The position numbers and the translations under genes were made by a program. DNA of 64,000 bases from Pirellulaceae bacterium (GTDB lineage: Bacteria; Planctomycetota; Planctomycetia; Pirellulales; Pirellulaceae): the NCBI GenBank assembly GCA_041399085.1, contig JAWKTM010000007.1:87822-151821 (forward strand), given 5' to 3'. The stretch's first letter is position 1; every line of letters begins with the position of its first letter. Positions 24,826 through 32,561 of the stretch are shown here, piece after piece. The notes under the pieces are model-generated. The model worked only from the letters and a program-made list of their open reading frames with translations. It searched no databases and had not been told where the DNA came from.

Positions 24826-24876
24826 GGATTACCAAAACCCGGTGTCACAAGTGCAAGTGACACCGGGTTTTTTCGT
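24826..24876 (+). terminator. Rho-independent terminator-like hairpin immediately upstream of the tRNA array
   Basis: CCCGGTGTCAC-AAGTGCAA-GTGACACCGGG followed by TTTTTT. Confidence 0.6.
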
Positions 24877-24892
24877 GCCCGGACGACAACTT

Positions 24893-24964
24893 GGGCTGGT
24901 AGCTGAGACGGTATAGCGGCGGTCTGAAGAACCGCAGACGAGGGTTCGAGCACCTCCCGGCCCA
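24893..24964 (+). tRNA. tRNA-Phe(GAA)
   Basis: Acceptor GGGCTGG/CCGGCCC; anticodon loop CTGAAGA; T-arm GAGGG-TTCGAGC. Confidence 0.8.
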
Positions 24965-24992
24965 CTTTGCGCTCAAAGAGCGCGCACAACAT

Positions 24993-25065
24993 GGCCCGTT
25001 CGACTTCGGGTGAGGTCATCGGTCTTTCAAGCCGAGTAGGTTGGGTTCGACTCCCACACGGGCTG
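24993..25065 (+). tRNA. tRNA-Glu(TTC)
   Basis: Acceptor GGCCCGT/ACGGGCT; anticodon loop CTTTCAA; T-loop TTCGACT. Confidence 0.8.
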
Positions 25066-25084
25066 CTTGAAAAAACAACACGAT

Positions 25085-25159
25085 CAGAACGTGGCGAAGC
25101 CTGGTTATCGCGCGTGGTCGGGGGCCACGAGATCGCAGGTTCAAATCCTGCCGTTCTGA
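25085..25159 (+). tRNA. tRNA-Pro(GGG), non-canonical C33
   Basis: Acceptor CAGAACG/CGTTCTG; anticodon arm CGTGG-TCGGGGG-CCACG; T-arm GCAGG-TTCAAAT-CCTGC. Confidence 0.65.
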
Positions 25160-25181
25160 CTGAACGAACAAAACAATTGAT

Positions 25182-25254
25182 CGGGCAGAGGTGCAGATGG
25201 AAGCACGCCTGCTTTGGGAGCAGGAGGGTCTCGGTTCGACTCCGAGGTGCCCGA
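25182..25254 (+). tRNA. tRNA-Pro(TGG)
   Basis: D-stem GTGC/GCAC; anticodon arm CCTGC-TTTGGGA-GCAGG; T-arm CTCGG-TTCGACT-CCGAG. Confidence 0.75.
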
Positions 25255-25264
25255 CTTGAAAAAC

Positions 25265-25336
25265 GGTAGTCGAGGGCTGGTTGCCCATACTCGGCTGATA
25301 ACCGAGTCGCGCTGAGTTCGATTCCCAGGACCACCA
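25265..25336 (+). tRNA. tRNA-Ile(GAT)-like, with A.C mismatches in the acceptor and T stems
   Basis: Anticodon arm CTCGG-CTGATAA-CCGAG; T-loop TTCGATT; atypical D-arm. Confidence 0.5.
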
Positions 25337-25407
25337 CTGAACGCGTAATGAACAGGAGAACAATGATGCACGCTGTCCGCTTGAAACGCATACACCAGAC
25401 CGATCAC

Positions 25408-25480
25408 AGGGTCGTGGTGTAACAGGCAGCACAGCAGACTTTTAATCTGCACGGTGTGGGTTCGATTCCCTCCGGCCCTA
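25408..25480 (+). tRNA. tRNA-Lys(TTT)
   Basis: Acceptor AGGGTCG/CGGCCCT; anticodon arm GCAGA-CTTTTAA-TCTGC; T-loop TTCGATT. Confidence 0.8.
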
Positions 25481-25485
25481 CTCGC

Positions 25486-25558
25486 TGGCGCGTAGCTCAG
25501 CGGTGAGAGCGGCGTCCTTATAAGACGCAGGTCGTGGGTTCAACTCCCATCGCGCCGA
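25486..25558 (+). tRNA. tRNA-Ile(TAT) (UAU anticodon, unusual for bacteria)
   Basis: TAGCTCAGCGGTGAGAGC D-arm; anticodon arm GCGTC-CTTATAA-GACGC; T-arm GTGGG-TTCAACT-CCCAT. Confidence 0.7.
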
Positions 25559-25574
25559 CTGAAGACAACAACAT

Positions 25575-25665
25575 GGGACTAAGGTGTTAGCGGCAGCCGA
25601 CCCGGAAGCCGGGTACCCCGCGGCTCTTAACCGGTGAGGTCAGGGTTCGAGCCCCTGTGGTCCTA
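25575..25665 (+). tRNA. 91-nt tRNA-like gene with canonical acceptor and T-arm but no resolvable anticodon arm
   Basis: Acceptor GGGACTA/TGGTCCT; T-arm CAGGG-TTCGAGC-CCCTG; internal hairpin CCCGG-AAG-CCGGG. Confidence 0.4.
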
Positions 25666-25679
25666 CTGACAATTTGCAA

Positions 25680-25751
25680 GCACTGGTCGTCTAGCGGCGA
25701 AGACTCCGCACCCGTAATGCGGCGACGTCGGTTCGAGTCCGGCCCGGTGCT
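25680..25751 (+). tRNA. tRNA-Thr(CGT), C33
   Basis: Acceptor GCACTGG/CCGGTGC; anticodon arm CCGCA-CCCGTAA-TGCGG; T-loop TTCGAGT. Confidence 0.75.
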
Positions 25752-25783
25752 CTGATGATCTTTGACAATTTGAAACGCAACAA

Positions 25784-25855
25784 GCGCCCATGATGTAAAG
25801 GCCAGCCTACTGCCTTGCCATGGCGGAAGTGCGGGTTCGATTCCCGCTGGGCGCT
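25784..25855 (+). tRNA. tRNA-Gly(GCC), weak D-arm
   Basis: Acceptor GCGCCCA/TGGGCGC; anticodon loop TTGCCAT; T-arm GCGGG-TTCGATT-CCCGC. Confidence 0.65.
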
Positions 25856-25863
25856 CTCAATAT

Positions 25864-25937
25864 CAGGGTGTGGGAAAGCCTGGCATTCCGCGTGCTTCGG
25901 GAGCACGAGATCGTTGGTTCAAATCCAACCATCCTGA
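25864..25937 (+). tRNA. tRNA-Pro(CGG)
   Basis: D-stem GGAA/TTCC; anticodon arm CGTGC-TTCGGGA-GCACG; T-arm GTTGG-TTCAAAT-CCAAC. Confidence 0.85.
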
Positions 25938-25946
25938 CTTAATGAT

Positions 25947-26021
25947 TGCGGTGGGTTCCGTGTTGGTACGGGTAGGCGGCTGTTAACCGCCCTGACGCAG
26001 GTTCGATTCCTGCCGCCGCAG
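25947..26021 (+). tRNA. tRNA-Asn(GTT)
   Basis: Anticodon arm GGCGG-CTGTTAA-CCGCC; T-arm GCAGG-TTCGATT-CCTGC; acceptor TGCGGTG/CGCCGCA. Confidence 0.75.
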
Positions 26022-26038
26022 CTTGTGAACATGAAAAC

Positions 26039-26122
26039 GGAAGGGCAAGCCAATTGGCGATGGCAGCCGCTTCGAAAGCGGTCGAGCGATGAGCCTTGAG
26101 GGTTCGACTCCCTCTCCTTCCG
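26039..26122 (+). tRNA. tRNA-Ser(CGA), class II
   Basis: Acceptor GGAAGGG/TCCTTCC; anticodon loop TTCGAAA; long variable arm; T-arm GAGGG-TTCGACT-CCCTC. Confidence 0.8.
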
Positions 26123-26138
26123 CTGAACGACAAACAAC

Positions 26139-26210
26139 GTGCTCTTGGCCGAGCGGCAAAGGCTCCAGGCTTCCAACCTGGCGAGGCGGGTTCGATTCCC
26201 GCAGAGCACT
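26139..26210 (+). tRNA. tRNA-Gly(TCC)
   Basis: Acceptor GTGCTCT/AGAGCAC; anticodon arm CCAGG-CTTCCAA-CCTGG; T-arm GCGGG-TTCGATT-CCCGC. Confidence 0.85.
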
Positions 26211-26222
26211 CTTCAGATTGAT

Positions 26223-26294
26223 GGGTCGGTAGCTCAGCGGCAGAGCAGGTGCCTGTTAAGTACCAGCGCGCGGGTTCGAGTCCCGCCCGTCCCT
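26223..26294 (+). tRNA. tRNA-Asn(GTT), second copy with a different sequence
   Basis: Anticodon arm GGTGC-CTGTTAA-GTACC; T-arm GCGGG-TTCGAGT-CCCGC; one acceptor mismatch. Confidence 0.7.
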
Positions 26295-26305
26295 CTGTGA
26301 AACGA

Positions 26306-26379
26306 TGCGGGGTAGTCGCTGCTGGTAGTGATGCCTGACTTTGAACCAGGAGGCGTAGGTTCGATTCCTACCCCCGCAG
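26306..26379 (+). tRNA. tRNA-Gln(TTG)
   Basis: Acceptor TGCGGGG/CCCCGCA; anticodon loop CTTTGAA; T-arm GTAGG-TTCGATT-CCTAC. Confidence 0.7.
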
Positions 26380-26433
26380 CTCGAGGCGAACCATGCACGA
26401 ACATGCGTGTCGTTTGAAACACACAACAACCAT

Positions 26434-26536
26434 TGCGGGACAGTCGCTGTTGGTAGTGACGCCTGGCTCCGGGCACCGATCGGCCATAAGGCCGGATTGG
26501 TCGTGGAGGCCGTTGGTTCGATTCCAACTCCCGCAG
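26434..26536 (+). tRNA. 103-nt tRNA-like gene: a paralogue of the Gln tRNA whose anticodon stem-loop is replaced by a ~50-nt insert containing a CGGCC-ATAA-GGCCG hairpin
   Basis: Acceptor TGCGGGA/TCCCGCA; D-arm nearly identical to 26306..26379; T-arm GTTGG-TTCGATT-CCAAC. No 5-bp/7-nt anticodon arm can be drawn. Confidence 0.4.
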
Positions 26537-26546
26537 CTCAAAGGAC

Positions 26547-26631
26547 GGAAGTCATCCGGCTGGATGAGGAGCCTGTTTTGAAAACAGGTGGCGACGCGAG
26601 TCGCTTGTGAGTTCGAGTCTCACGACTTCCG
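26547..26631 (+). tRNA. tRNA-Ser(TGA), class II
   Basis: Acceptor GGAAGTC/GACTTCC; anticodon arm CCTGT-TTTGAAA-ACAGG; variable hairpin GGCGAC-GCGA-GTCGCT; T-arm GTGAG-TTCGAGT-CTCAC. Confidence 0.85.
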
Positions 26632-26642
26632 CTCCGAAAGAT

Positions 26643-26713
26643 GGGCTCATCGTCCAACAGGAAGATGCTGGCGTCGCATGCCAGAGATTCGGGTGCAATT
26701 CCCGATGGGTCCA
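26643..26713 (+). tRNA. tRNA-Ala(CGC)-like (G3.U70 present), reduced D-arm, T-loop TGCAATT
   Basis: Acceptor GGGCTCA/TGGGTCC; anticodon arm CTGGC-GTCGCAT-GCCAG. Confidence 0.55.
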
Positions 26714-26722
26714 CTCAACAAC

Positions 26723-26795
26723 AGTCCTGTGGCCTAGCGGCGAAGGCAGCTCTCTTACAAGGAGCGGATCGGGGGTTCGAGTCCCTCCAGGACTA
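26723..26795 (+). tRNA. tRNA-Val(TAC)
   Basis: Acceptor AGTCCTG/CAGGACT; anticodon arm GCTCT-CTTACAA-GGAGC; T-loop TTCGAGT. Confidence 0.8.
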
Positions 26796-26810
26796 CTTCA
26801 GCAACACGAT

Positions 26811-26903
26811 GCCCAGATACGCCAATCGGCAGAGCGGTCCGGCTCGGGCACCGACCGAAGGTTGGTCGCCGGACGTTTGCAGGTTCGAGTCCTGCTCTGG
26901 GTA
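26811..26903 (+). tRNA. 93-nt tRNA-like gene whose central domain is a 7-bp stem (GTCCGGC/GCCGGAC) enclosing a 24-nt loop
   Basis: Acceptor GCCCAGA/TCTGGGT; T-arm GCAGG-TTCGAGT-CCTGC; no canonical anticodon arm. Confidence 0.4.
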
Positions 26904-26917
26904 CTGACAACACGCAT

Positions 26918-26991
26918 GGCTCGGTAGGCAATTGGCAGACCACTTTGGCTTAGAACCAGAGATGCTGCGGGTTCGAATCCCGCCTGAGCTA
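26918..26991 (+). tRNA. tRNA with Leu anticodon TAG on a short-variable-arm (class I) scaffold
   Basis: Anticodon arm TTTGG-CTTAGAA-CCAGA; T-arm GCGGG-TTCGAAT-CCCGC; discriminator A. Confidence 0.55.
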
Positions 26992-27000
26992 CTTTCATAC

Positions 27001-27073
27001 GTCCTCGTGGAGCAGCGGAGTGCTCGCCTGCCTGTCACGCAGGAGATCGTGGGTTCAAATCCCATCGGGGACG
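27001..27073 (+). tRNA. tRNA-Asp(GTC)
   Basis: D-stem GAGC/GCTC; anticodon arm CCTGC-CTGTCAC-GCAGG; T-arm GTGGG-TTCAAAT-CCCAT; discriminator G. Confidence 0.85.
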
Positions 27074-27079
27074 CTGAGA

Positions 27080-27131
27080 GTCGCCTTTCGCTCCGCGAAA
27101 GCAGCGCTACTTTCGCGGAGCGAAAGGCGAC
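27080..27131. repeat. Perfect 22-bp inverted repeat (GTCGCCTTTCGCTCCGCGAAAG / CTTTCGCGGAGCGAAAGGCGAC) with an 8-nt loop, lying between tRNAs
   Basis: Direct reading of the sequence. Confidence 0.8.
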
Positions 27132-27135
27132 AAAC

Positions 27136-27213
27136 GGCGCGGTACGCAAACCGGTAAAGCGGCGAAGCTCAAAACTTCGTGATCGTCTGTGAGTTCGACT
27201 CCCACCCGTGCTA
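27136..27213 (+). tRNA. tRNA with Leu anticodon CAA, class II-type D-arm but only a 9-nt variable region
   Basis: D-arm CGC-AAACCGGTAAA-GCG; anticodon arm CGAAG-CTCAAAA-CTTCG; T-loop TTCGACT; discriminator A. Confidence 0.6.
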
Positions 27214-27221
27214 CTGAGAGT

Positions 27222-27311
27222 CGTGAGGCGTGAGACTTGGGCATTGGCAGGCCCAAGTGGCTGTAACCCACCCGCTTTCGAGCTTTGCAGGTTCAACTCC
27301 TGCTCGGGCGC
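27222..27311 (+). tRNA. tRNA-Tyr(GTA)-like, class II, with unpaired acceptor stem (probable pseudo-tRNA)
   Basis: D-arm GGGC-ATTGGCAG-GCCC; anticodon GTGG-CTGTAAC-CCAC; 15-nt variable region; T-arm GCAGG-TTCAACT-CCTGC. Confidence 0.4.
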
Positions 27312-27403
27312 ACTGAAAGCATGGCCCTGTTCTTCCTACGGCAGGTGATGCGAGCCTCAAGCCTCCGCGATACGGGTTCAACTCTGTACGGGCTGGCCGA
27401 TAT

Positions 27404-27487
27404 GGCGAGGTGGCGGAACAGGTATACGCGCGCGACGTCAGAACGTCGTCCGCCGGGACATGCGAGTTCGAATCTCGCCTTCGCTAC
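27404..27487 (+). tRNA. tRNA-Leu(CAG), class II with long variable arm; anticodon loop only 6 nt (TCAGAA)
   Basis: Acceptor GGCGAGG/CTTCGCT; D-arm GCG-GAACAGGTATA-CGC (close to E. coli Leu); T-arm GCGAG-TTCGAAT-CTCGC; discriminator A. Confidence 0.7.
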
Positions 27488-27639
27488 TCGAAACACTGCA
27501 GGTGCGACAGGTGTCCAACTGACTTTCATACGGTCGGCGCTCGGCTCGATACCGAGACTCCGCAACTGCGGGTGGGCCAGTGCTCATCGGAGCCTCATGA
27601 GCCTGACTGCCGGGTGCGACCCCCGGACCCGCCACTTAC

Positions 27640-27716
27640 GGCCGAGTACGCAAACAGGCAAAGCGGTCACGTCGAGAGCGTGGCGATTTTGTGGGTTCGA
27701 TGCCCACCTTCGGCCT
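27640..27716 (+). tRNA. tRNA with Leu anticodon GAG, C33, short (8-nt) variable region
   Basis: Acceptor GGCCGAG/TTCGGCC; D-arm CGC-AAACAGGCAAA-GCG; anticodon arm CACG-TCGAGAG-CGTG; T-arm GTGGG-TTCGATG-CCCAC. Confidence 0.55.
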
Positions 27717-27725
27717 TCCACTGAC

Positions 27726-27794
27726 GATCTTGTCCAGCGCAGAAGACGCTCTGGGTGAACCAGGAGATCGATGGTTCGATTCCATCCGCGATCA
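27726..27794 (+). tRNA. Degenerate tRNA-like element (intact T-arm and acceptor, 5-nt anticodon loop)
   Basis: T-arm GATGG-TTCGATT-CCATC; acceptor GATCTTG/CGCGATC with one mismatch. Confidence 0.3.
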
Positions 27795-27892
27795 CTTATG
27801 AATTAATATTCGTAGGTGTTCCGGTAGCACGCGTCCGTGGTAAGGGACGGGAGATTGGGTTCGACTCCCGAACGGACCTCCTCTCAATGAAT

Positions 27893-27964
27893 GGGCTCAT
27901 GCTGATGGAGGCGACTGACCCTTGCAAGGTCGGTGCAGACTGGTTCGACCTGGATCAGGTCCAC
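27893..27964 (+). tRNA. tRNA-Ala(TGC)-like paralogue of 26643..26713, with degenerate T-arm
   Basis: Acceptor GGGCTCA; G3.U70; anticodon arm GACC-CTTGCAA-GGTC. Confidence 0.4.
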
Positions 27965-27979
27965 TTGATTCTGGGCTGA

Positions 27980-28046
27980 TGGTCCAACGGGGAAGACACC
28001 GCCCTGGCGTGGCGGAAATCCGGGCCCGAATTCCCGGTCGGTCCAC
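27980..28046 (+). tRNA. Degenerate tRNA-like element with Ala(GGC)-type anticodon arm
   Basis: CCGCC-CTGGCGT-GGCGG stem-loop plus a CCGGG...CCCGG T-arm-like hairpin; the acceptor cannot be paired. Confidence 0.3.
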
Positions 28047-28063
28047 TGACATTGAAAACATAC

Positions 28064-28147
28064 GGAAGGCAGTTGATATACCCGCCGGGCCGGTTTGCTA
28101 AACCGTGTGACTCCACAAGGTCATGTGGGTCAACCTGATGCCTTCCG
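28064..28147 (+). tRNA. tRNA-Ser(GCT)-like, class II, degenerate T-arm
   Basis: Acceptor GGAAGGC/GCCTTCC; anticodon arm CGGT-TTGCTAA-ACCG; variable hairpin TGAC...GTCA. Confidence 0.45.
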
Positions 28148-28159
28148 GGCTGATGGCCT

Positions 28160-28226
28160 GATGGTGAAATGGAAATCATATCTCGCTTCTAACGAGATGG
28201 TCCAGGTTCAACTCCTGGTCGAGCTT
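28160..28226 (+). tRNA. tRNA-Arg(TCT)-like with an unpaired acceptor
   Basis: Anticodon arm TCTCG-CTTCTAA-CGAGA; T-arm CCAGG-TTCAACT-CCTGG. Confidence 0.4.
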
Positions 28227-28248
28227 CTGATTGAAAACGGAAGGGCAA

Positions 28249-28326
28249 CCCGATTGGCGACGGGACCCGGTTGGAAGCCGGTCGAGCATTTTCTAAACGC
28301 CTTGCGAGTTCGACTCGCTCCGCTGA
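28249..28326 (+). tRNA. Pseudo-tRNA-Ser(GGA), a paralogue of 26039..26122 with a degenerate 3' acceptor and shortened T-loop
   Basis: Shares 5' GAAAACGGAAGGGCAA... with the Ser(CGA) gene; anticodon loop TTGGAAG. Confidence 0.35.
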
Positions 28327-28370
28327 GCAAATGCGTGACGTAACGCGTGAACGGAAAGGACAAGACAATG

Positions 28371-29170
28371 AGCACACTAATTCAAGACGCATTCAAGGCG
28401 ATCGCTATGAAGCTCGTCGAGATTTGCAGGTAACGCTTTCGAGATTGACGTTCGACAAAACGGCGATCGCGAAGTGTACCAGCTCAAGTACCCAACCGGG
28501 GATAACGTCTTGGCTGAGGCGTTCGATGCTTCAAGTCGAAGCAGCGTCACCTGGTGTTGATGTCTCAGGCTGGCGTTTGCCAATTGGTGGACGCTTACTT
28601 GTGCGGCCACGACGAACAACATTTGAAGTCTGTTGCTTCGCTGCCTTCGATCGACAGACAACAACCGTTCGCGCGCGATGGAGGCGTTGAAGCCTGGAGA
28701 CGCAGCGAGAGCAGAAGCGAAAGGGTGTGAAGCACCGACGTCATCGCCGAAAGACAGCGGCGGCGTGCGACAAGGCGAGTGGTTCTTCCTGCCACGACCC
28801 AAGATGCACGCAGGTGAAGCATGACCCGCAACGGCCGATTGGTCCGTGGTGCCGGCAAGCCGCATCGCGTTGAGTGGTTGTATCGTCCTGCGGATCGGGA
28901 CGAGACGTTTGTTCGGGGAGCGGTTTCTGCACCCCGATCACAAGACGATTTACCTGCAAGTATGGCATCGCGTAGTGCAGAACAACGAAGCTGCCAACTC
29001 CTGAGGCACGCCAGTTCACTGCATGTTGTACCTCGATTAAACCTGGGCCGTCGCGCTTCGGTGACGGCGGCCCACATTTATGGTGTCCGTGGTGTACGCG
29101 GTGTAGCACGTCTGCTCGTGAAGCAGAATGTACGGTCCCCTGTCGGTCACCCTTCGGAACAGAGAAAGGA
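28371..29170 (+). pseudogene. Hypothetical gene(s) split across frames (MSTLIQDAFKAIAMKLVEIC... / FEIDVRQNGDREVYQLKYPTGDNVLAEAFD...)
   Basis: Protein-like segments in shifting plus frames; no recognisable family. Confidence 0.25.
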
Positions 29171-29720
29171 ATGGATCATGGTAGCGAAGATGCTCCAGTG
29201 CCCGGGCGCTGGTGCTGGAACCGCAACTGGCAGCCAGTGAACGTGGCCACGGTGTTGCGGGGCTGGTGCTGTTGTGGAACGAGTCCGCGCGGGTCGTCGA
29301 TCCAACGGACTACCAGCTTTACACCTGGGAGGATTGGTCGAAGTTGCGTCCGCGCGACGACGAGCGGTTCATCCAGGCGGTGAAGTTTCGCTGCGTGTGC
29401 CGGAAGTGATTACGCTCGCCGACTACGACCGGGTTGCCATCGGCGGCCGTCTCGTTCAGCCGTCGGAACATTTTCAAGCGTGACCATTACACGTGCCAGT
29501 ACTGCGGTCGGCAGCCCGGCAGCGAGGAACTGACGATCGACCACGTTGTGCCTGTGCTCAGGGCGAGTCGCGGTGGGATCAACTGCGTGCTGGATGGTTT
29601 GACGTGCAACCACCGCAAGGCCGACCGCACGCCACAGCAAGCCAAGCTGCGACTCCGCAACGAGCCAGCACAGCCGAAGTGGAACCTGCTTACACCGCGG
29701 CACGAAGTGCGAATGGAAAG
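29171..29720 (+). pseudogene. HNH endonuclease (classic ~170-aa HNH family) with at least three frameshifts
   Basis: MDHGSEDAPVPGRW.WNRNWQPVNVATV (frame A); LLWNESARVVDPTDYQLYTWEDWSKLRPR...AVKF (frame B); RVPEVITLADYDRVAIGGRLVQPS (frame C); then RRNIFKRDHYTCQYCGR...TIDHVVP...GLTCNHRKADRTP (CxxC...H-N-H motifs). Confidence 0.65.
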
Positions 29721-29823
29721 CTTCATCGAAGTTCGTCAGCGAGGCGTACTGGAACGTCGAGCTGGCGAAGTAATTGACAACGATCGCTCCCTGGTTCCAG
29801 TCGCCGGGAGTTTCTCACTCCAC

Positions 29824-29889
29824 GAGCGTGCTCCTGGGAGAAGCAGCCAGCCTCCAAAACTGGCGGACAGGGTTCGACTCTCGCGCTCT
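29824..29889 (+). other. tRNA-like remnant (acceptor GAGCGTG/CGCGCTC, TTCGACT loop, no proper T-stem)
   Basis: Direct reading; low confidence. Confidence 0.25.
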
Positions 29890-29899
29890 CATGCTTTGC

Positions 29900-30265
29900 G
29901 AGGCTTGAGGTGTGAGGCTTGAGGCTTGAGGGGCGTGTTTTCCTCGGTTTCCTCAGGTCTCAGGACTCAAGCCTCACTTACGCCCTGCGAGTGTGTGATT
30001 TTTTGGACGGCATGGCAGACTCTGGAATCTGCCGGACGAGGTTCGATTCCTCGATAAAGCGTGCTAGGCTTGAGGCGCGAGGCTTGAGACTTGAGGGAAG
30101 AACAGAGAACGATCCTTCCTCGAGCCTCAGGTCTTAAGTCTCAGGACTCATGAGTCGCCGGAGTGTGCCGGATTCGCACGCGAGCCCGCGAAGCTCGAAG
30201 ATCAGGTTCGATTCCTGGCGGCGACACTGAAGAGGCTTGAGGTGTGAGGCTTGAGACTTGAGGGA
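29900..30265. repeat. GAGGCTTGAG repeat family: three ~34-bp forward units (29900-29933, 30065-30097, 30232-30265) alternating with inverted units (29951-29976, 30115-30150), flanking a tRNA half-like module (30014-30052) and a tRNA-like gene
   Basis: Direct reading. The related motif GAGCCTCAAGCCTC also occurs inside the array at ~27345-27365. Confidence 0.7.
30154..30226 (+). tRNA. tRNA-Arg(GCG)-like, C33, embedded in GAGGCTTGAG repeats
   Basis: Perfect acceptor GTCGCCG/CGGCGAC; D-stem GTGT/GCAC; anticodon arm CGAGC-CCGCGAA-GCTCG; T-arm TCAGG-TTCGATT-CCTGG. Confidence 0.55.
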
Positions 30266-30267
30266 GG

Positions 30268-30828
30268 TTAGTTGTCGGGGCGTAACGACCGGATTAGGCC
30301 AACGAGGACGCGAGCGGTCTCGTCGGCCTGGCGGCTGAGATCGGTGGCGACATCGTCCGGCAGATAGCCGAGACGATGGGCGACGGATAGCTGGTACTCG
30401 ACTTCGCGGGCCGAGCCCAATGCTAGGTCGAGAAACCGAACGTAGTCTGCCTGCGTGCTACGAGCGCAGCCTTCGACGATGTTCGAGGCGATGGAAAGAG
30501 CGGCACGGTGCATCTGGGATGTAAGCCCGAACAGCTCTTCTTTCGGGAAGGACTTCGTCGCGGCGTAAACGGCCAGGACCAGCGCGTCAGCAAGCTCGAA
30601 CGCCCGGAGTTTTCGATGATCTCTCATGACGACATTTTCTTCCCGTCTCGTGGTCCTGGGCTTCACGACTCGGAACAATGACGCCAGAGCCAGACGGTGC
30701 AAGGCTGCCTCGGGCGAAGCCAGCGGTTCGACCTCGCCGGCGTCTCTTCCAAGCAAGGTTTCGATGTCGTCTGGACCAGCGGCGCCTCGATCCATCCATT
30801 CGGATTCGGGTCGGTGTGTTCCGGACAT
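30268..30828 (-). CDS. Four-helix-bundle protein (TIGR02436; 23S rRNA IVS-associated family)
   Basis: ELFGLTSQMHRAALSIASNIVEGCAR...DYVRFLDLALGSAREVEYQLSVAHRLGYL. Confidence 0.8.
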   Translation of the reverse strand: MSGTHRPESEWMDRGAAGPDDIETLLGRDAGEVEPLASPEAALHRLALASLFRVVKPRTTRREENVVMRDHRKLRAFELADALVLAVYAATKSFPKEELFGLTSQMHRAALSIASNIVEGCARSTQADYVRFLDLALGSAREVEYQLSVAHRLGYLPDDVATDLSRQADETARVLVGLIRSLRPDN

Positions 30829-30857
30829 GGATTATGACAATGACGATGTCACTACCG

Positions 30858-30930
30858 ACAAGGTTAGCTCAGAGGGTAGAGCACCAGACTATGAATCTGG
30901 AAGTCACGGGTTCGACTCCCGTACCAACAC
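30858..30930 (+). tRNA. tRNA-like gene with intact D-, anticodon- and T-arms but unpaired acceptor stem (possible integration-site remnant or pseudo-tRNA)
   Basis: TAGCTCAGAGGGTAGAGC D-arm; anticodon arm CCAGA-CTATGAA-TCTGG; T-arm ACGGG-TTCGACT-CCCGT; 5' ACAAGGT does not pair with 3' ACCAACA. Confidence 0.4.
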
Positions 30931-31439
30931 CACCAACAGGCTGTATCATGGCAATCGATGCCCGAACCGCCAGGACATCGGCGTTACCCAAGAGCCTGAG
31001 GGAGGCGGGCGTACGTAGGATCGGCTGCCAGTTGGTCGCCATGTAGGCGAGTCTCGAAGAGACTGGCTTACAGAAGTGATCGGCCGGTGGCAGCATGAAC
31101 GAACACCATGTAGTGCGCGGATACCGCCTTTGCCCGCTGTCGGTGGAAGGTTGCCGGTGCTGGTGAGCGACGCCACGGGCTGCGGCCCGACGCGAACTCA
31201 TCAGCCGACGCAGTCGAAAACCGTCAGCGGTGACCGCTCAAGCAGCACTCCGTGCCAGTTCATGTGATCCGCGAACGTTCCGCCTTCCAACGGCGTCTCT
31301 TTCGTTTAACCGCAACGCCAACGGCGTGCGTGTGGAGCGCGGTTGGACGATCGATTGCAGCACACGCGCAGCCCGTTGGGCTTGCGGTTAAACGATGATG
31401 ACACACCACGCCCTTGATAACAGAAAGGAGGGCAATCCA

Positions 31440-32561
31440 ATGATGCTGTTCAAGCGAATTAAGATCCGTAGTTATGAGATGGGATTGTACTTCCGTGACG
31501 GCGAGTTCAAGGGACTCTTGAGCGAAGGTCGGCACTGGCTGTTCGATCCGCTGATGAAGGTCCGCGTCGACGTGGCCAACATGCGCGACGCGTGGCTGGC
31601 TCACGACAAGCTCGACATGATCGTCAAGTCGGGTGTGCTGAAGGACCGCGCGGTTGTGATGGACCTGAAGGACCACCAGCGTGGTCTGGTCTGGATCGAC
31701 GGCCGGTTCACGCACTTGCTCGCCGCCGGCCTGTACGCCTACTGGCACGGTGTCCGCGACGTGCGTGTCGAGGTGATCGACGTTCGCCAGGTGCGGTTCG
31801 AGCACGAGGACCTGAAGGTCATCGCGAAGACGCACATGGCGAAGCAGTTGCTCGACATCTGCACGGTCGACCGCGACCGCGTGGGTGTACTGTTCATCGA
31901 CGGACGGTACGTCGACACGCTGCGGCCGGGTCTGTACGCGTTCTGGAAGGGCGCGGCGGACGCCCGGGTTGTCGAGATCGACATGCGCGAGACCACGATC
32001 GACGTCAGCGGTCAGGAGATCATGACGTCGGACAAGGTCAGCCTGCGCATGAACGCACTGGTCACGTACCGCATCGCCGACGCGCGGAAGGCGGTCAGCT
32101 CGACGGACGATGTCCGCCAGGCTCTGTACCGCGAGACGCAGTTGGCATTGCGGGCCATCGTCGGCGCACGCGAGCTCGACGCATTCCTGACGGACAAGGA
32201 CGCCGTGGCTCAGGAGATCGAGCAGGCGGTACGCCGCCGCGCGGGCGAGCTGGGTCTGGAGATCGTATCGGTCGGTATCCGGGACGTGATCCTGCCGGGC
32301 GACATGAAGGACCTGATGAACAAGGTCACGGAGGCCAAGAAGGCCGCCGAGGCCAACCTCATCTCGCGCCGCGAGGAGACGGCCGCCATGCGCAGCCAAG
32401 CCAACACCGCCAAGCTGCTGGCCGACAACCCAACGCTGATGCGACTGCGTGAACTGGAAGTCCTGGAAAAGATCGCATCGGCCGGGCAACCTGAACGTCG
32501 TCCTTGGCGAAAAGGACTTGCCGAGCGCGGTCAACCTGTTGTAACCCTCTGCCCCGTTTGA
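31440..32561 (+). CDS. SPFH/band-7 domain protein (stomatin/HflKC-like)
   Basis: AGGAGGG RBS before ATGATG; SPFH core (SLRMNALVTYRIADARKAV...AIVGARELDAFLTDKDAVAQEI); C-terminal coiled-coil. Confidence 0.8.
   Translation: MMLFKRIKIRSYEMGLYFRDGEFKGLLSEGRHWLFDPLMKVRVDVANMRDAWLAHDKLDMIVKSGVLKDRAVVMDLKDHQRGLVWIDGRFTHLLAAGLYAYWHGVRDVRVEVIDVRQVRFEHEDLKVIAKTHMAKQLLDICTVDRDRVGVLFIDGRYVDTLRPGLYAFWKGAADARVVEIDMRETTIDVSGQEIMTSDKVSLRMNALVTYRIADARKAVSSTDDVRQALYRETQLALRAIVGARELDAFLTDKDAVAQEIEQAVRRRAGELGLEIVSVGIRDVILPGDMKDLMNKVTEAKKAAEANLISRREETAAMRSQANTAKLLADNPTLMRLRELEVLEKIASAGQPERRPWRKGLAERGQPVVTLCPV

Follow-up and report, generated by a model that had tools for sequence, protein, structure and literature searches.

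We analysed a stretch of 64,000 nucleotides from a Pirellulaceae bacterium (assembly GCA_041399085.1, contig JAWKTM010000007.1, positions 87,822 to 151,821 of the forward strand), hereafter called the window. It contains a long array of tRNA genes at 24893..30925 on the plus strand, and three of the leucine tRNA genes in this array have short variable regions. ARAGORN identified 27 tRNA genes (24893-30227), all on the plus strand; two more tRNAs were found by Rfam (26643-26713 and 30862-30925), and there are at least seven decayed remnants. The whole array has about 30 tRNA genes in about 6 kb, and 26 of the ARAGORN genes are packed into 3.3 kb (24893-28227), about eight per kb. None of the array tRNA genes encodes CCA. 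Both the number and the density of genes are above the thresholds for L-arrays, namely at least 20 tRNA genes and at least two per kb (Tran et al. 2015, PMC4758250). Genes neighbouring the array encode the Pfam domains PSCyt2/PSD1, DUF7133 with HEAT and cytochrome c, and BBP7. Since these domains are typical of Planctomycetes, the window, with a GC content of about 0.59, comes from a planctomycete-like chromosome carrying a dense tRNA array.

The short leucine genes are a type I-like tRNA-Leu(UAG) at 26918..26991 (the TAG gene), tRNA-Leu(CAA) at 27136..27213, and a member of the tRNA-Leu(GAG) family at 27640..27716, identified by ARAGORN and by comparison with its family; all three are on the plus strand. 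They had been proposed in a first-pass annotation of the sequence, and ARAGORN agrees on the anticodons, the positions and the variable regions of 5-9 nt. Its spans are 26918-26992, 27136-27214 and 27640-27716; as the ARAGORN end counts one base beyond the discriminator, the earlier coordinates are right. The variable regions are 5 nt in the TAG gene (ATGCT), 8-9 nt in the CAA gene (TGATCGTCT) and 6-7 nt in the GAG gene (CGATTTT); counted as 5, 9 and 7 nt, they do not contain the long arm of class II tRNAs. The CAA and GAG genes have the D-stem of three base pairs, CGC/GCG, and the 11-nt D-loop (AAACCGGTAAA in CAA) that had been described for them. The D-arm of the TAG gene, said to be unfoldable, indeed has only the pairs G10-C25 and G11-C24 and a C12.A23 mismatch, which is kept in most of the TAG family.

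The core of the CAA and GAG genes reads U8 A9 CGC AAAC(C/A)GG(U/C)AAA GCG, with a variable region ending in U, so that U8:A14, A15:U48, G18G19 and A20a are all present. The TAG gene has A14, G18G19 and A20a and deviates from this core by U15 and by the C12.A23 mismatch. The T-loops are TTCGAAT (TAG), TTCGACT (CAA) and TTCGATG (GAG), and the pairs G18:U55, G19:C56 and U54:A58 can be formed in all three. The discriminator base is A73 in the TAG and CAA genes and U73 in the GAG gene.

To place these genes in a wider context, we scanned the GTDB set of one genome per species with the D-arm motif that the CAA and GAG genes have in common, GTACGCAAACNGGNAAAGCGG. At least 119 loci matched, here denoted by L and a number; the family counts, lengths and alignments below come from the matches listed, and the genome of the window is not among them. 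The motif occurs almost exclusively in tRNAs of 74-81 nt with leucine anticodons, and 95 of the listed loci hold at least ten tRNAs within 8 kb. The carriers are nearly all Planctomycetota (Pirellulales, Planctomycetaceae, Gemmataceae, Isosphaeraceae, Thermoguttaceae), including the cultured Stieleria magnilauensis, S. sedimenti, Rubripirellula obstinata, Rhodopirellula maiorica and Aporhodopirellula rubra; a few loci are from cyanobacteria, a metagenome-assembled genome of Lachnospiraceae, and other groups. Some viral contigs of IMG/VR, up to 217 kb long, also carry tRNA clusters with short leucine genes. The motif was observed in glutamine-anticodon tRNAs (CTG, TTG) with U1-A72 and G73 at the cyanobacterial loci L050 (3543-3616) and L060 (4290-4363); these tRNAs have acceptor features of the glutamine type, and their body scores best on the short Leu(CAA) model.

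In these arrays the Leu genes with anticodons CAA, GAG, TAA and TAG are almost always 73-80 nt long (range to 81), with variable regions of 4-11 nt, Leu(CAG) is mostly 83-86 nt (class II), Ser is 83-98 nt and Tyr mostly 80-90 nt. The genes follow the order ...V(tac) L(taa) L(tag) D L(caa) Y E(ctc) L(cag, 85 nt) M L(gag) V(gac) T A A S R..., kept across loci from Pirellulales, Planctomycetaceae, Gemmataceae, Isosphaeraceae and Thermoguttaceae. The window array agrees in order with L039, L053, L068, L076 and other planctomycete arrays, the closest among the matches listed being L039 (77-88% DNA identity) and L053 (80-85%). Thus three short leucine genes and one long CAG gene represent the standard layout of this array family, and homology and order are shared with arrays of unrelated genomes, which indicates horizontal spread. 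The short genes of the window had been called truncated. This label is misleading, as four of the five leucine isoacceptor families of the arrays have conserved the short form, which occurs in more than 100 assemblies. Judging from sequence, the short leucine tRNAs are real, and they belong to conserved families whose long tRNA array has spread horizontally.

The three genes of the window differ in their condition. The TAG gene agrees with the consensus of its family and is 1 nt off its orthologues in L053 and L066; the single change relative to L053 leaves a G.U wobble in the T-stem (GCGGG/CCCGC, where most of the family has GTGGG/CCCAC), and this copy looks intact. The CAA gene is identical to its L039 orthologue at 77 of 79 nt, and its 9-nt variable form is common to L039, L068, L076, L066 and L031. 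One of the two differing positions creates an uncompensated A52.C62 mismatch in the T-stem that is seen in no other member of the family, so that this copy looks nearly intact. In the GAG gene the 3' acceptor strand is longer by one base, and U73 takes the place of the family's A73; this copy is probably defective or dead. On the Rfam tRNA model the TAG gene scores 44.4 bits and the CAA gene 44.5 bits (E about 8e-8; gathering score 29). The GAG gene has no Rfam tRNA hit. The intact L039 orthologue is missed as well, so the silence of Rfam is uninformative here, and it was rejected as a sign of decay.

The cloverleaf is maintained in evolution. Among 115 distinct CAA and GAG sequences that were aligned, standard pairs make up 99.2% of the stem cells, and changes on both sides are seen in 14 of the 20 pairs. 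The covariation score is 0.516, compared with 0.200 for shuffled alignments (none of 500 reaches the observed value) and at most 0.10 with slid partners. The compensatory pair types in the acceptor, anticodon and T-stems are not due to the way the sequences were selected. The discriminator is also conserved: A73 is found in 73 of 80 unique CAA sequences, 64 of 69 GAG sequences, 40 of 44 TAA sequences and 31 of the 32 unique sequences of the TAG family. Other conserved features are U8, G18G19, the T-loop TTCGAxT and the terminal U of the variable region.

These positions can be compared with the known determinants of leucine identity. In E. coli they comprise A73, A14, A15:U48, G18G19, A20a and the tertiary pairs that join the D-loop to the T-loop; the anticodon and the long arm are dispensable for leucyl-tRNA synthetase (LeuRS), and minimal tRNAs from which both arms are missing can still be charged (review PMC9976931). 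As the arm is not an identity element for E. coli LeuRS, its absence does not exclude leucylation. The CAA, GAG and TAA families retain the whole E. coli-type set, and the TAG family retains A73, A14, G18G19 and A20a. The bodies were further compared by profile hidden Markov models (HMMs) built for each array isotype with anticodons masked and long arms trimmed, used as a stand-in for the tRNAscan-SE isotype models. The CAA bodies (76 of 87) and GAG bodies (68 of 73) are nearest to the class II Leu(CAG) of the arrays, with a median margin of 9-10 bits; the TAA bodies give a mixed result, and the TAG body scores higher on the other short leucine models than on any non-leucine model.

The anticodons point in the same direction. 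Leucine anticodons are carried by 261 of 266 short leucine bodies, and 24 of the 261 have switched to another leucine anticodon; only two to four of the nine single-base neighbours of these anticodons are leucine anticodons. The five exceptions are three genes disrupted by a hairpin element described below and the two cyanobacterial glutamine tRNAs with U1-A72 and G73. Such restriction to the leucine box is expected of a tRNA that serves in decoding and whose body specifies leucine. The first-pass annotation suggested that the short tRNAs might be unusual LeuRS substrates or decoys. LeuRS is the right enzyme to consider, but a pure LeuRS decoy is disfavoured: as LeuRS does not read the anticodon, a decoy would have no need to keep it in the leucine box, where it remains even after changes. 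There seems to be no plausible candidate among the other synthetases: AlaRS would need G3:U70 and SerRS the long arm, neither of which is present, and the remaining enzymes read other anticodons and, by the known identity rules, would not accept NAA/NAG (PMC9976931).

Short bacterial leucine tRNAs have precedents, and the initial premise of class II as the sole form of bacterial tRNA-Leu is wrong. In Streptomyces coelicolor the only LeuRS leucylates a type I tRNALeu(CAA) (Fan et al. 2019, PMC6614811), and a tRNA cluster that mycobacteria acquired horizontally has been reported to contain tRNALeu(TAG) with a short loop (Behra et al. 2019, PMC6582537). Long tRNA arrays are also known, with Planctomycetes listed among the carrier phyla (PMC4758250, PMC8421152). 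In the trn operon of Anabaena PCC 7120, another counterexample, ARAGORN identified Leu(taa), (tag), (caa) and (gag) genes with variable loops of 4-5 nt, a D-stem of three base pairs and an 11-nt D-loop; they are not discussed in the text of PMC8421152. According to that study, 23 of the 26 tRNAs of this operon are aminoacylated in vivo, and all those tested are present in polysomes. As four of the 26 are short leucine tRNAs, at least one of these must be charged.

Other parts of the window array are decaying. The slot of Leu(CAG) at 27404..27487 on the plus strand holds a gene that ARAGORN reports as tRNA-?(Leu|Ser)(caga) and that was aligned to its L039 and L053 orthologues. It was initially taken for a canonical class II neighbour, and a long variable arm is indeed present (13 nt, stem TCC/GGA); its anticodon loop, however, is abnormal, and the gene is damaged. 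The loop has 8 nt (caga) by ARAGORN, or 6 nt, TCAGAA, with alternative pairing; relative to the orthologues, C32 of the loop CTCAGAA has been lost and two nucleotides have been gained at the junction of the D- and anticodon arms. The Rfam score is 36.8 bits, compared with 51.9 bits for the L039 orthologue, and in the minimum-energy fold, which is not a cloverleaf, CAG is buried in a 7-bp stem with a 4-nt loop. This is probably a dead copy. An anticodon loop of 8 nt is also the form of a +1 frameshift suppressor.

The Leu(UAA) slot (26811..26904, plus strand) was miscalled by ARAGORN as a 94-nt Pro(cgg) gene. Its anticodon loop, CTTAAAC in the orthologues, has been swapped for a 23-nt hairpin element, and with the anticodon masked, the body reaches 56.9 bits on the short Leu(TAA) model, the best non-leucine model giving 20.8 bits. 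Seven further slots hold intact tRNAs in L039; in the window ARAGORN called none of them, and they were recognised on the plus strand by global alignment to L039: Glu(CUC) at 27325-27397, Met at 27497-27564, Val(GAC) at 27723-27795, Thr(GGU) at 27807-27883, Ala(UGC) at 27893-27964, Ser(GCU) at 28064-28150 and Ser(GGA) at 28239-28324. Within the same interval (27325..28324) ARAGORN still calls, besides the Leu(CAG) and Leu(GAG) genes, Ala(GGC) at 27973-28046 and Arg(UCU) at 28155-28227, both on the plus strand.

The remnant of an HNH endonuclease gene follows at 29171..29922 on the plus strand. Its open reading frame (ORF) 29434-29922 has hits to Pfam HNH (E = 4e-5) and HNH_5, and is 42% identical over 77 aa (E = 8e-17) to WP_010999558.1, an HNH endonuclease annotated beside the Anabaena trn array that is probably the all8564 of PMC8421152. 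About 85 N-terminal residues of the Anabaena homologue are missing from this ORF; an N-terminal-like stretch at 29171-29383 appears from the ORF translations to lie in another frame, and thus the gene is probably a pseudogene. A linked HNH endonuclease gene is a recurrent feature of tRNA arrays (PMC8421152, PMC6582537, PMC12803027), embedded in the array in mycobacteria (PMC12803027), and the window array has such a gene, apparently frameshifted. With remnants in seven slots and in the HNH gene, GAG and CAG copies that are probably dead, and a disrupted TAA slot, the array of the window is, as judged from these comparisons, eroding.

Taken together, these observations make it likely that the short genes of the window belong to type I-like tRNA-Leu families that reside on a horizontally spread L-array (a tRNA array unit) with a linked HNH gene, are leucylated, and function in decoding. 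The array would be transcribed as a unit, and the tRNAs would be excised by RNase P and RNase Z; since no array gene encodes CCA, it would be added enzymatically. The LeuRS of the host would then leucylate the short tRNAs through A73 and the core formed by the D- and T-loops (U8:A14, A15:U48, G18G19, A20a). In decoding, CAA would read UUG, UAG would read CUA and CUG, and GAG would read CUC and CUU, the array tRNAs serving as extra copies beside the housekeeping tRNAs. A scan of the array for promoters and terminators gave counts no better than in shuffled sequences, and a BLAST comparison with deposited phage genomes gave only scattered matches of single tRNAs.

Several observations weigh against this explanation. 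The TAG body is not clearly leucine-like: apart from the short leucine models, it fits Ser, Tyr or Lys best, by only 1.3 bits, and it combines U15 instead of A15 with the conserved C.A mismatch in the D-stem. Two thirds of the GAG genes have C33, which is abnormal for an elongator tRNA, and the general Rfam tRNA model misses the GAG family altogether. The percentage of paired positions is inflated, and the D-stem made invariant, by selection of sequences with the D-arm pattern and by ARAGORN, which favours cloverleaves. The text of PMC8421152 does not name the three pseudogenes among the 26 tRNAs of the Anabaena operon. Finally, in our assessment the support for the planctomycete arrays comes from their sequences, and the evidence of charging from other systems.

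If the short tRNAs are indeed leucylated, the long arm would have been lost where identity does not need it. By established identity rules, the arm is used by SerRS and by bacterial TyrRS and not by E. coli LeuRS (PMC9976931), and the Ser and Tyr tRNAs of the same arrays retain theirs. The loss fits reductive evolution of a mobile and often silent element; it may also reflect selection for substrates acceptable to LeuRS from many hosts. Leu(CAG) may have kept its long arm as a later recruit, since its body differs (G9, D-stem GCG/CGC), or the retention may be tied to class II tRNALeu being a better substrate of LeuRS (PMC6614811).

One can speculate that the short leucine forms and the C33 loops, common in the Leu(GAG), Pro(GGG), Glu(CUC) and Thr(CGU) genes of the arrays, are no relaxed remnants and make stealth tRNAs, charged by the synthetases of many hosts and evading tRNA-cleaving toxins or regulators. 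This is unlikely; it assumes that toxins of the host or of phages, and tRNA-directed regulators, recognise the class II arm or the normal anticodon loop. If it were true, the array would be a portable kit for the rescue of translation or for countering defence.

The erosion of the window array suggests another possibility, that the short genes are plain pseudogenes: class II leucine genes that lost their arms by deletion in a decaying mobile element and are neither expressed nor charged. Apart from the remnant slots, the frameshifted HNH gene, the defects of the GAG and CAG genes and the disrupted TAA slot, the uncompensated T-stem mismatch of the CAA gene and the lack of an Rfam hit for GAG agree with this. 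However, pseudogenes would not be expected to conserve the short form in over a hundred assemblies, to accumulate compensatory changes in the acceptor, anticodon and T-stems while keeping A73 and the T-loop, or to stay within the leucine box even after an anticodon switch; and the TAG gene of the window matches the family consensus, one nucleotide from its closest listed orthologues. As an explanation of the short genes it is therefore quite unlikely; decay is plausible for individual copies (GAG, CAG) and does not fit the families.

A further possibility is that the short tRNAs are functional RNAs other than ordinary leucine adaptors, acting as decoys or spare substrates for toxins and nucleases, or that they are mischarged and cause recoding. 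The arrays have been discussed as putative anti-defence devices (PMC12803027), and translational stress induces the Anabaena array along with the RNA ligase RtcB, in a response that also induces genes for the ribonucleases VapC, MazF and RelE (PMC8421152, PMC10272220). Unusual anticodon loops are also common in the arrays, and the TAG body, as noted, is ambiguous. U33 is nearly universal in tRNAs. Among 1986 unique array tRNAs (loci L001-L119) it is replaced by C33 in 231, most often in Pro(GGG) (75%), Leu(GAG) (67%), Glu(CTC) (58%), Thr(CGT) (39%), Ala(GGC) (36%) and Val(GAC) (36%); C33 is absent from the array Leu genes with anticodons CAA, CAG, TAA and TAG. In the window it is found at 27672 in Leu(GAG), 25120 in Pro(GGG), 25712 in Thr(CGU) and 30187 in Arg(GCG). 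On the other hand, the restriction to the leucine box argues for decoding with leucine, and mischarging is hard to reconcile with the missing G3:U70 of AlaRS and long arm of SerRS and with the NAA/NAG anticodons, which anticodon-reading enzymes would reject (PMC9976931). A role outside leucine decoding is thus improbable. Replacement of tRNAs cleaved by nucleases is a different matter: it would refine rather than exclude leucylation and decoding by the array tRNAs, since ordinary leucylation would still be required.

That the genes are prediction artefacts, chance cloverleaves in GC-rich DNA, as could be suggested by the sole support of ARAGORN for GAG in the window and by weak minimum-energy fold z-scores (0.0 for CAA, -1.4 for TAG), was rejected as practically impossible given the Rfam E-values of about 8e-8 for TAG and CAA, the orthologues in the same array slots of dozens of genomes, the covariation, and the recurrence of the D-arm motif in leucine-anticodon tRNAs at at least 119 other loci, which excludes chance for CAA and GAG.

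The hairpin element of the Leu(UAA) slot, GGGCACCGACCGAAGGTTGGTCG (26846..26868, plus strand), is not unique to this gene. A second copy, GGGCACCGATCGGCCATAAGGCCGGATTGGTCG, lies at 26471..26503 on the plus strand, in the anticodon loop of the remnant of a Gln(CUG) slot (approximately 26424-26537), with its flanks mapping to positions 36 and 44 of the glutamine model. The element consists of GGGCACCG, followed by a stem-loop of 6-7 bp and then by TCG, and has a length of 23-35 nt; conserved CCG/TGG form the foot of the stem, and the upper stem varies among the copies with compensatory changes. About 100 copies in both orientations were found in 46 of the 120 sources examined (for example L014, L039, L053, L018, L037, L113). 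In array tRNA genes it replaces 5-6 nt of the anticodon, D- or T-loop; it was also observed outside tRNA genes on two viral contigs, on one of which (L152) it lies within the loop of a larger palindrome. No match to an Rfam family was found. We considered an intron in the TAA slot and rejected it: the insertion replaces the anticodon and adjacent bases, so its excision cannot give a 7-nt loop, and the same element occurs in D- and T-loops and in both orientations. The element differs from ordinary introns in that excision does not restore the anticodon; it may be mobile, with hairpin loops as its targets, and inactivate tRNA genes of the arrays.

A near-perfect palindrome of 52 nt was found at 27080..27131, between tRNA-Asp and tRNA-Leu(CAA). 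Its arms of 26 nt are 96% complementary and have no spacer. It is absent from L039, where the spacer between Asp and Leu(CAA) is only 11 nt, and its motif CCTTTCGCTCCGCGAAAG recurs in the arrays L002 and L084. Upstream of the array, at 24834-24871, there is a perfect inverted repeat of 15 bp with an 8-nt loop (AAAACCCGGTGTCAC ... GTGACACCGGGTTTT), 22 nt from the first tRNA; it could be the terminator of an upstream unit or an operator of the array.

The Ser and Tyr tRNAs of the window array (26541-26630, 26039-26123, 27228-27313) retain long variable arms. On these genes the Rfam tRNA-Sec model gives 26.8-42.7 bits, below its gathering score of 47, and outscores the general tRNA model. As ARAGORN draws it, the Tyr gene of the window has two mismatches in an acceptor stem of 8 bp. 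Just downstream of the array are a gene of the 23S rRNA intervening-sequence protein family (30268-30828, minus strand; PF05635, four-helix bundle) and an SPFH/Band 7 gene (31395-32561, plus strand). A slipin-family gene is co-regulated with the Anabaena trn operon via TrcR (PMC10272220), and hence the linkage of the SPFH gene to the array may not be accidental.

The idea that leucine anticodons sit on short scaffolds with D-arms of the class II type thus holds, whereas the class II premise is wrong and the decoy role is disfavoured; the damage to the CAG neighbour and to the GAG copy, and the membership of these genes in a known kind of mobile tRNA array, had been overlooked. Both mobile tRNA arrays and short leucine tRNAs are already known. 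The possible novelty lies in the regularity of the pattern, in which four of five isoacceptors are short in different phyla, and in how many members the planctomycetes contribute. The textbook generalisation needs correction, as short-armed tRNA-Leu extends beyond mitochondria and one Streptomyces gene: the short form is usual for four of five leucine isoacceptors in the surveyed arrays, mainly planctomycete ones, and it also occurs in single cyanobacterial and Lachnospiraceae arrays and on several phage contigs. The arrays provide a natural experiment on synthetase identity, in which the arm has been lost for Leu and kept for Ser and bacterial Tyr. In genome annotation, such genes may be flagged as isotype mismatches or pseudogenes though they are probably real tRNAs; at the same time, single copies, such as GAG and CAG of the window, can be dead although a gene finder still calls them.

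Among known systems, the animal mitochondrial tRNALeu is also of type I, lacks the long arm and is recognised via A73 and A14 (PMC9976931). It differs in being organellar, with a dedicated LeuRS and an often reduced core, and has no evolutionary link to the arrays. The tRNALeu(CAA) of S. coelicolor is a bacterial tRNA that combines a leucine anticodon with a variable loop of 5 nt, occurs side by side with class II tRNALeu, and depends on U8:A14 as an identity element. However, it is encoded by a stand-alone chromosomal gene outside any array, and A73 is not among its identity elements (PMC6614811). Its variable loop is ACAGC, with C48 where the planctomycete families have a terminal U48.

In Mycobacterium mucogenicum and M. 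phocaicum, the short-loop tRNALeu(TAG) resides, as in the window, in a horizontally acquired cluster with an HNH gene, and the housekeeping isoacceptor has a long arm. That case is described in one sentence and concerns one isoacceptor in a cluster of 11-14 genes, with no family-wide analysis (PMC6582537).

A further parallel is the trn operon of Anabaena PCC 7120 on pCC7120delta (PMC4758250, PMC8421152). The planctomycete gene order is unlike that of cyanobacterial arrays, the planctomycete arrays, unlike Anabaena, retain one class II Leu(CAG), and the copy in the window is chromosomal and partly decayed. Nevertheless, both systems consist of dozens of tRNA genes on the same strand at more than two per kb with a linked HNH gene; an SPFH/Band 7 gene lies beside the window array, and a slipin-family gene belongs to the Anabaena TrcR regulon (PMC10272220); and both the Anabaena operon and the planctomycete arrays contain short Leu(UAA), Leu(UAG), Leu(CAA) and Leu(GAG).

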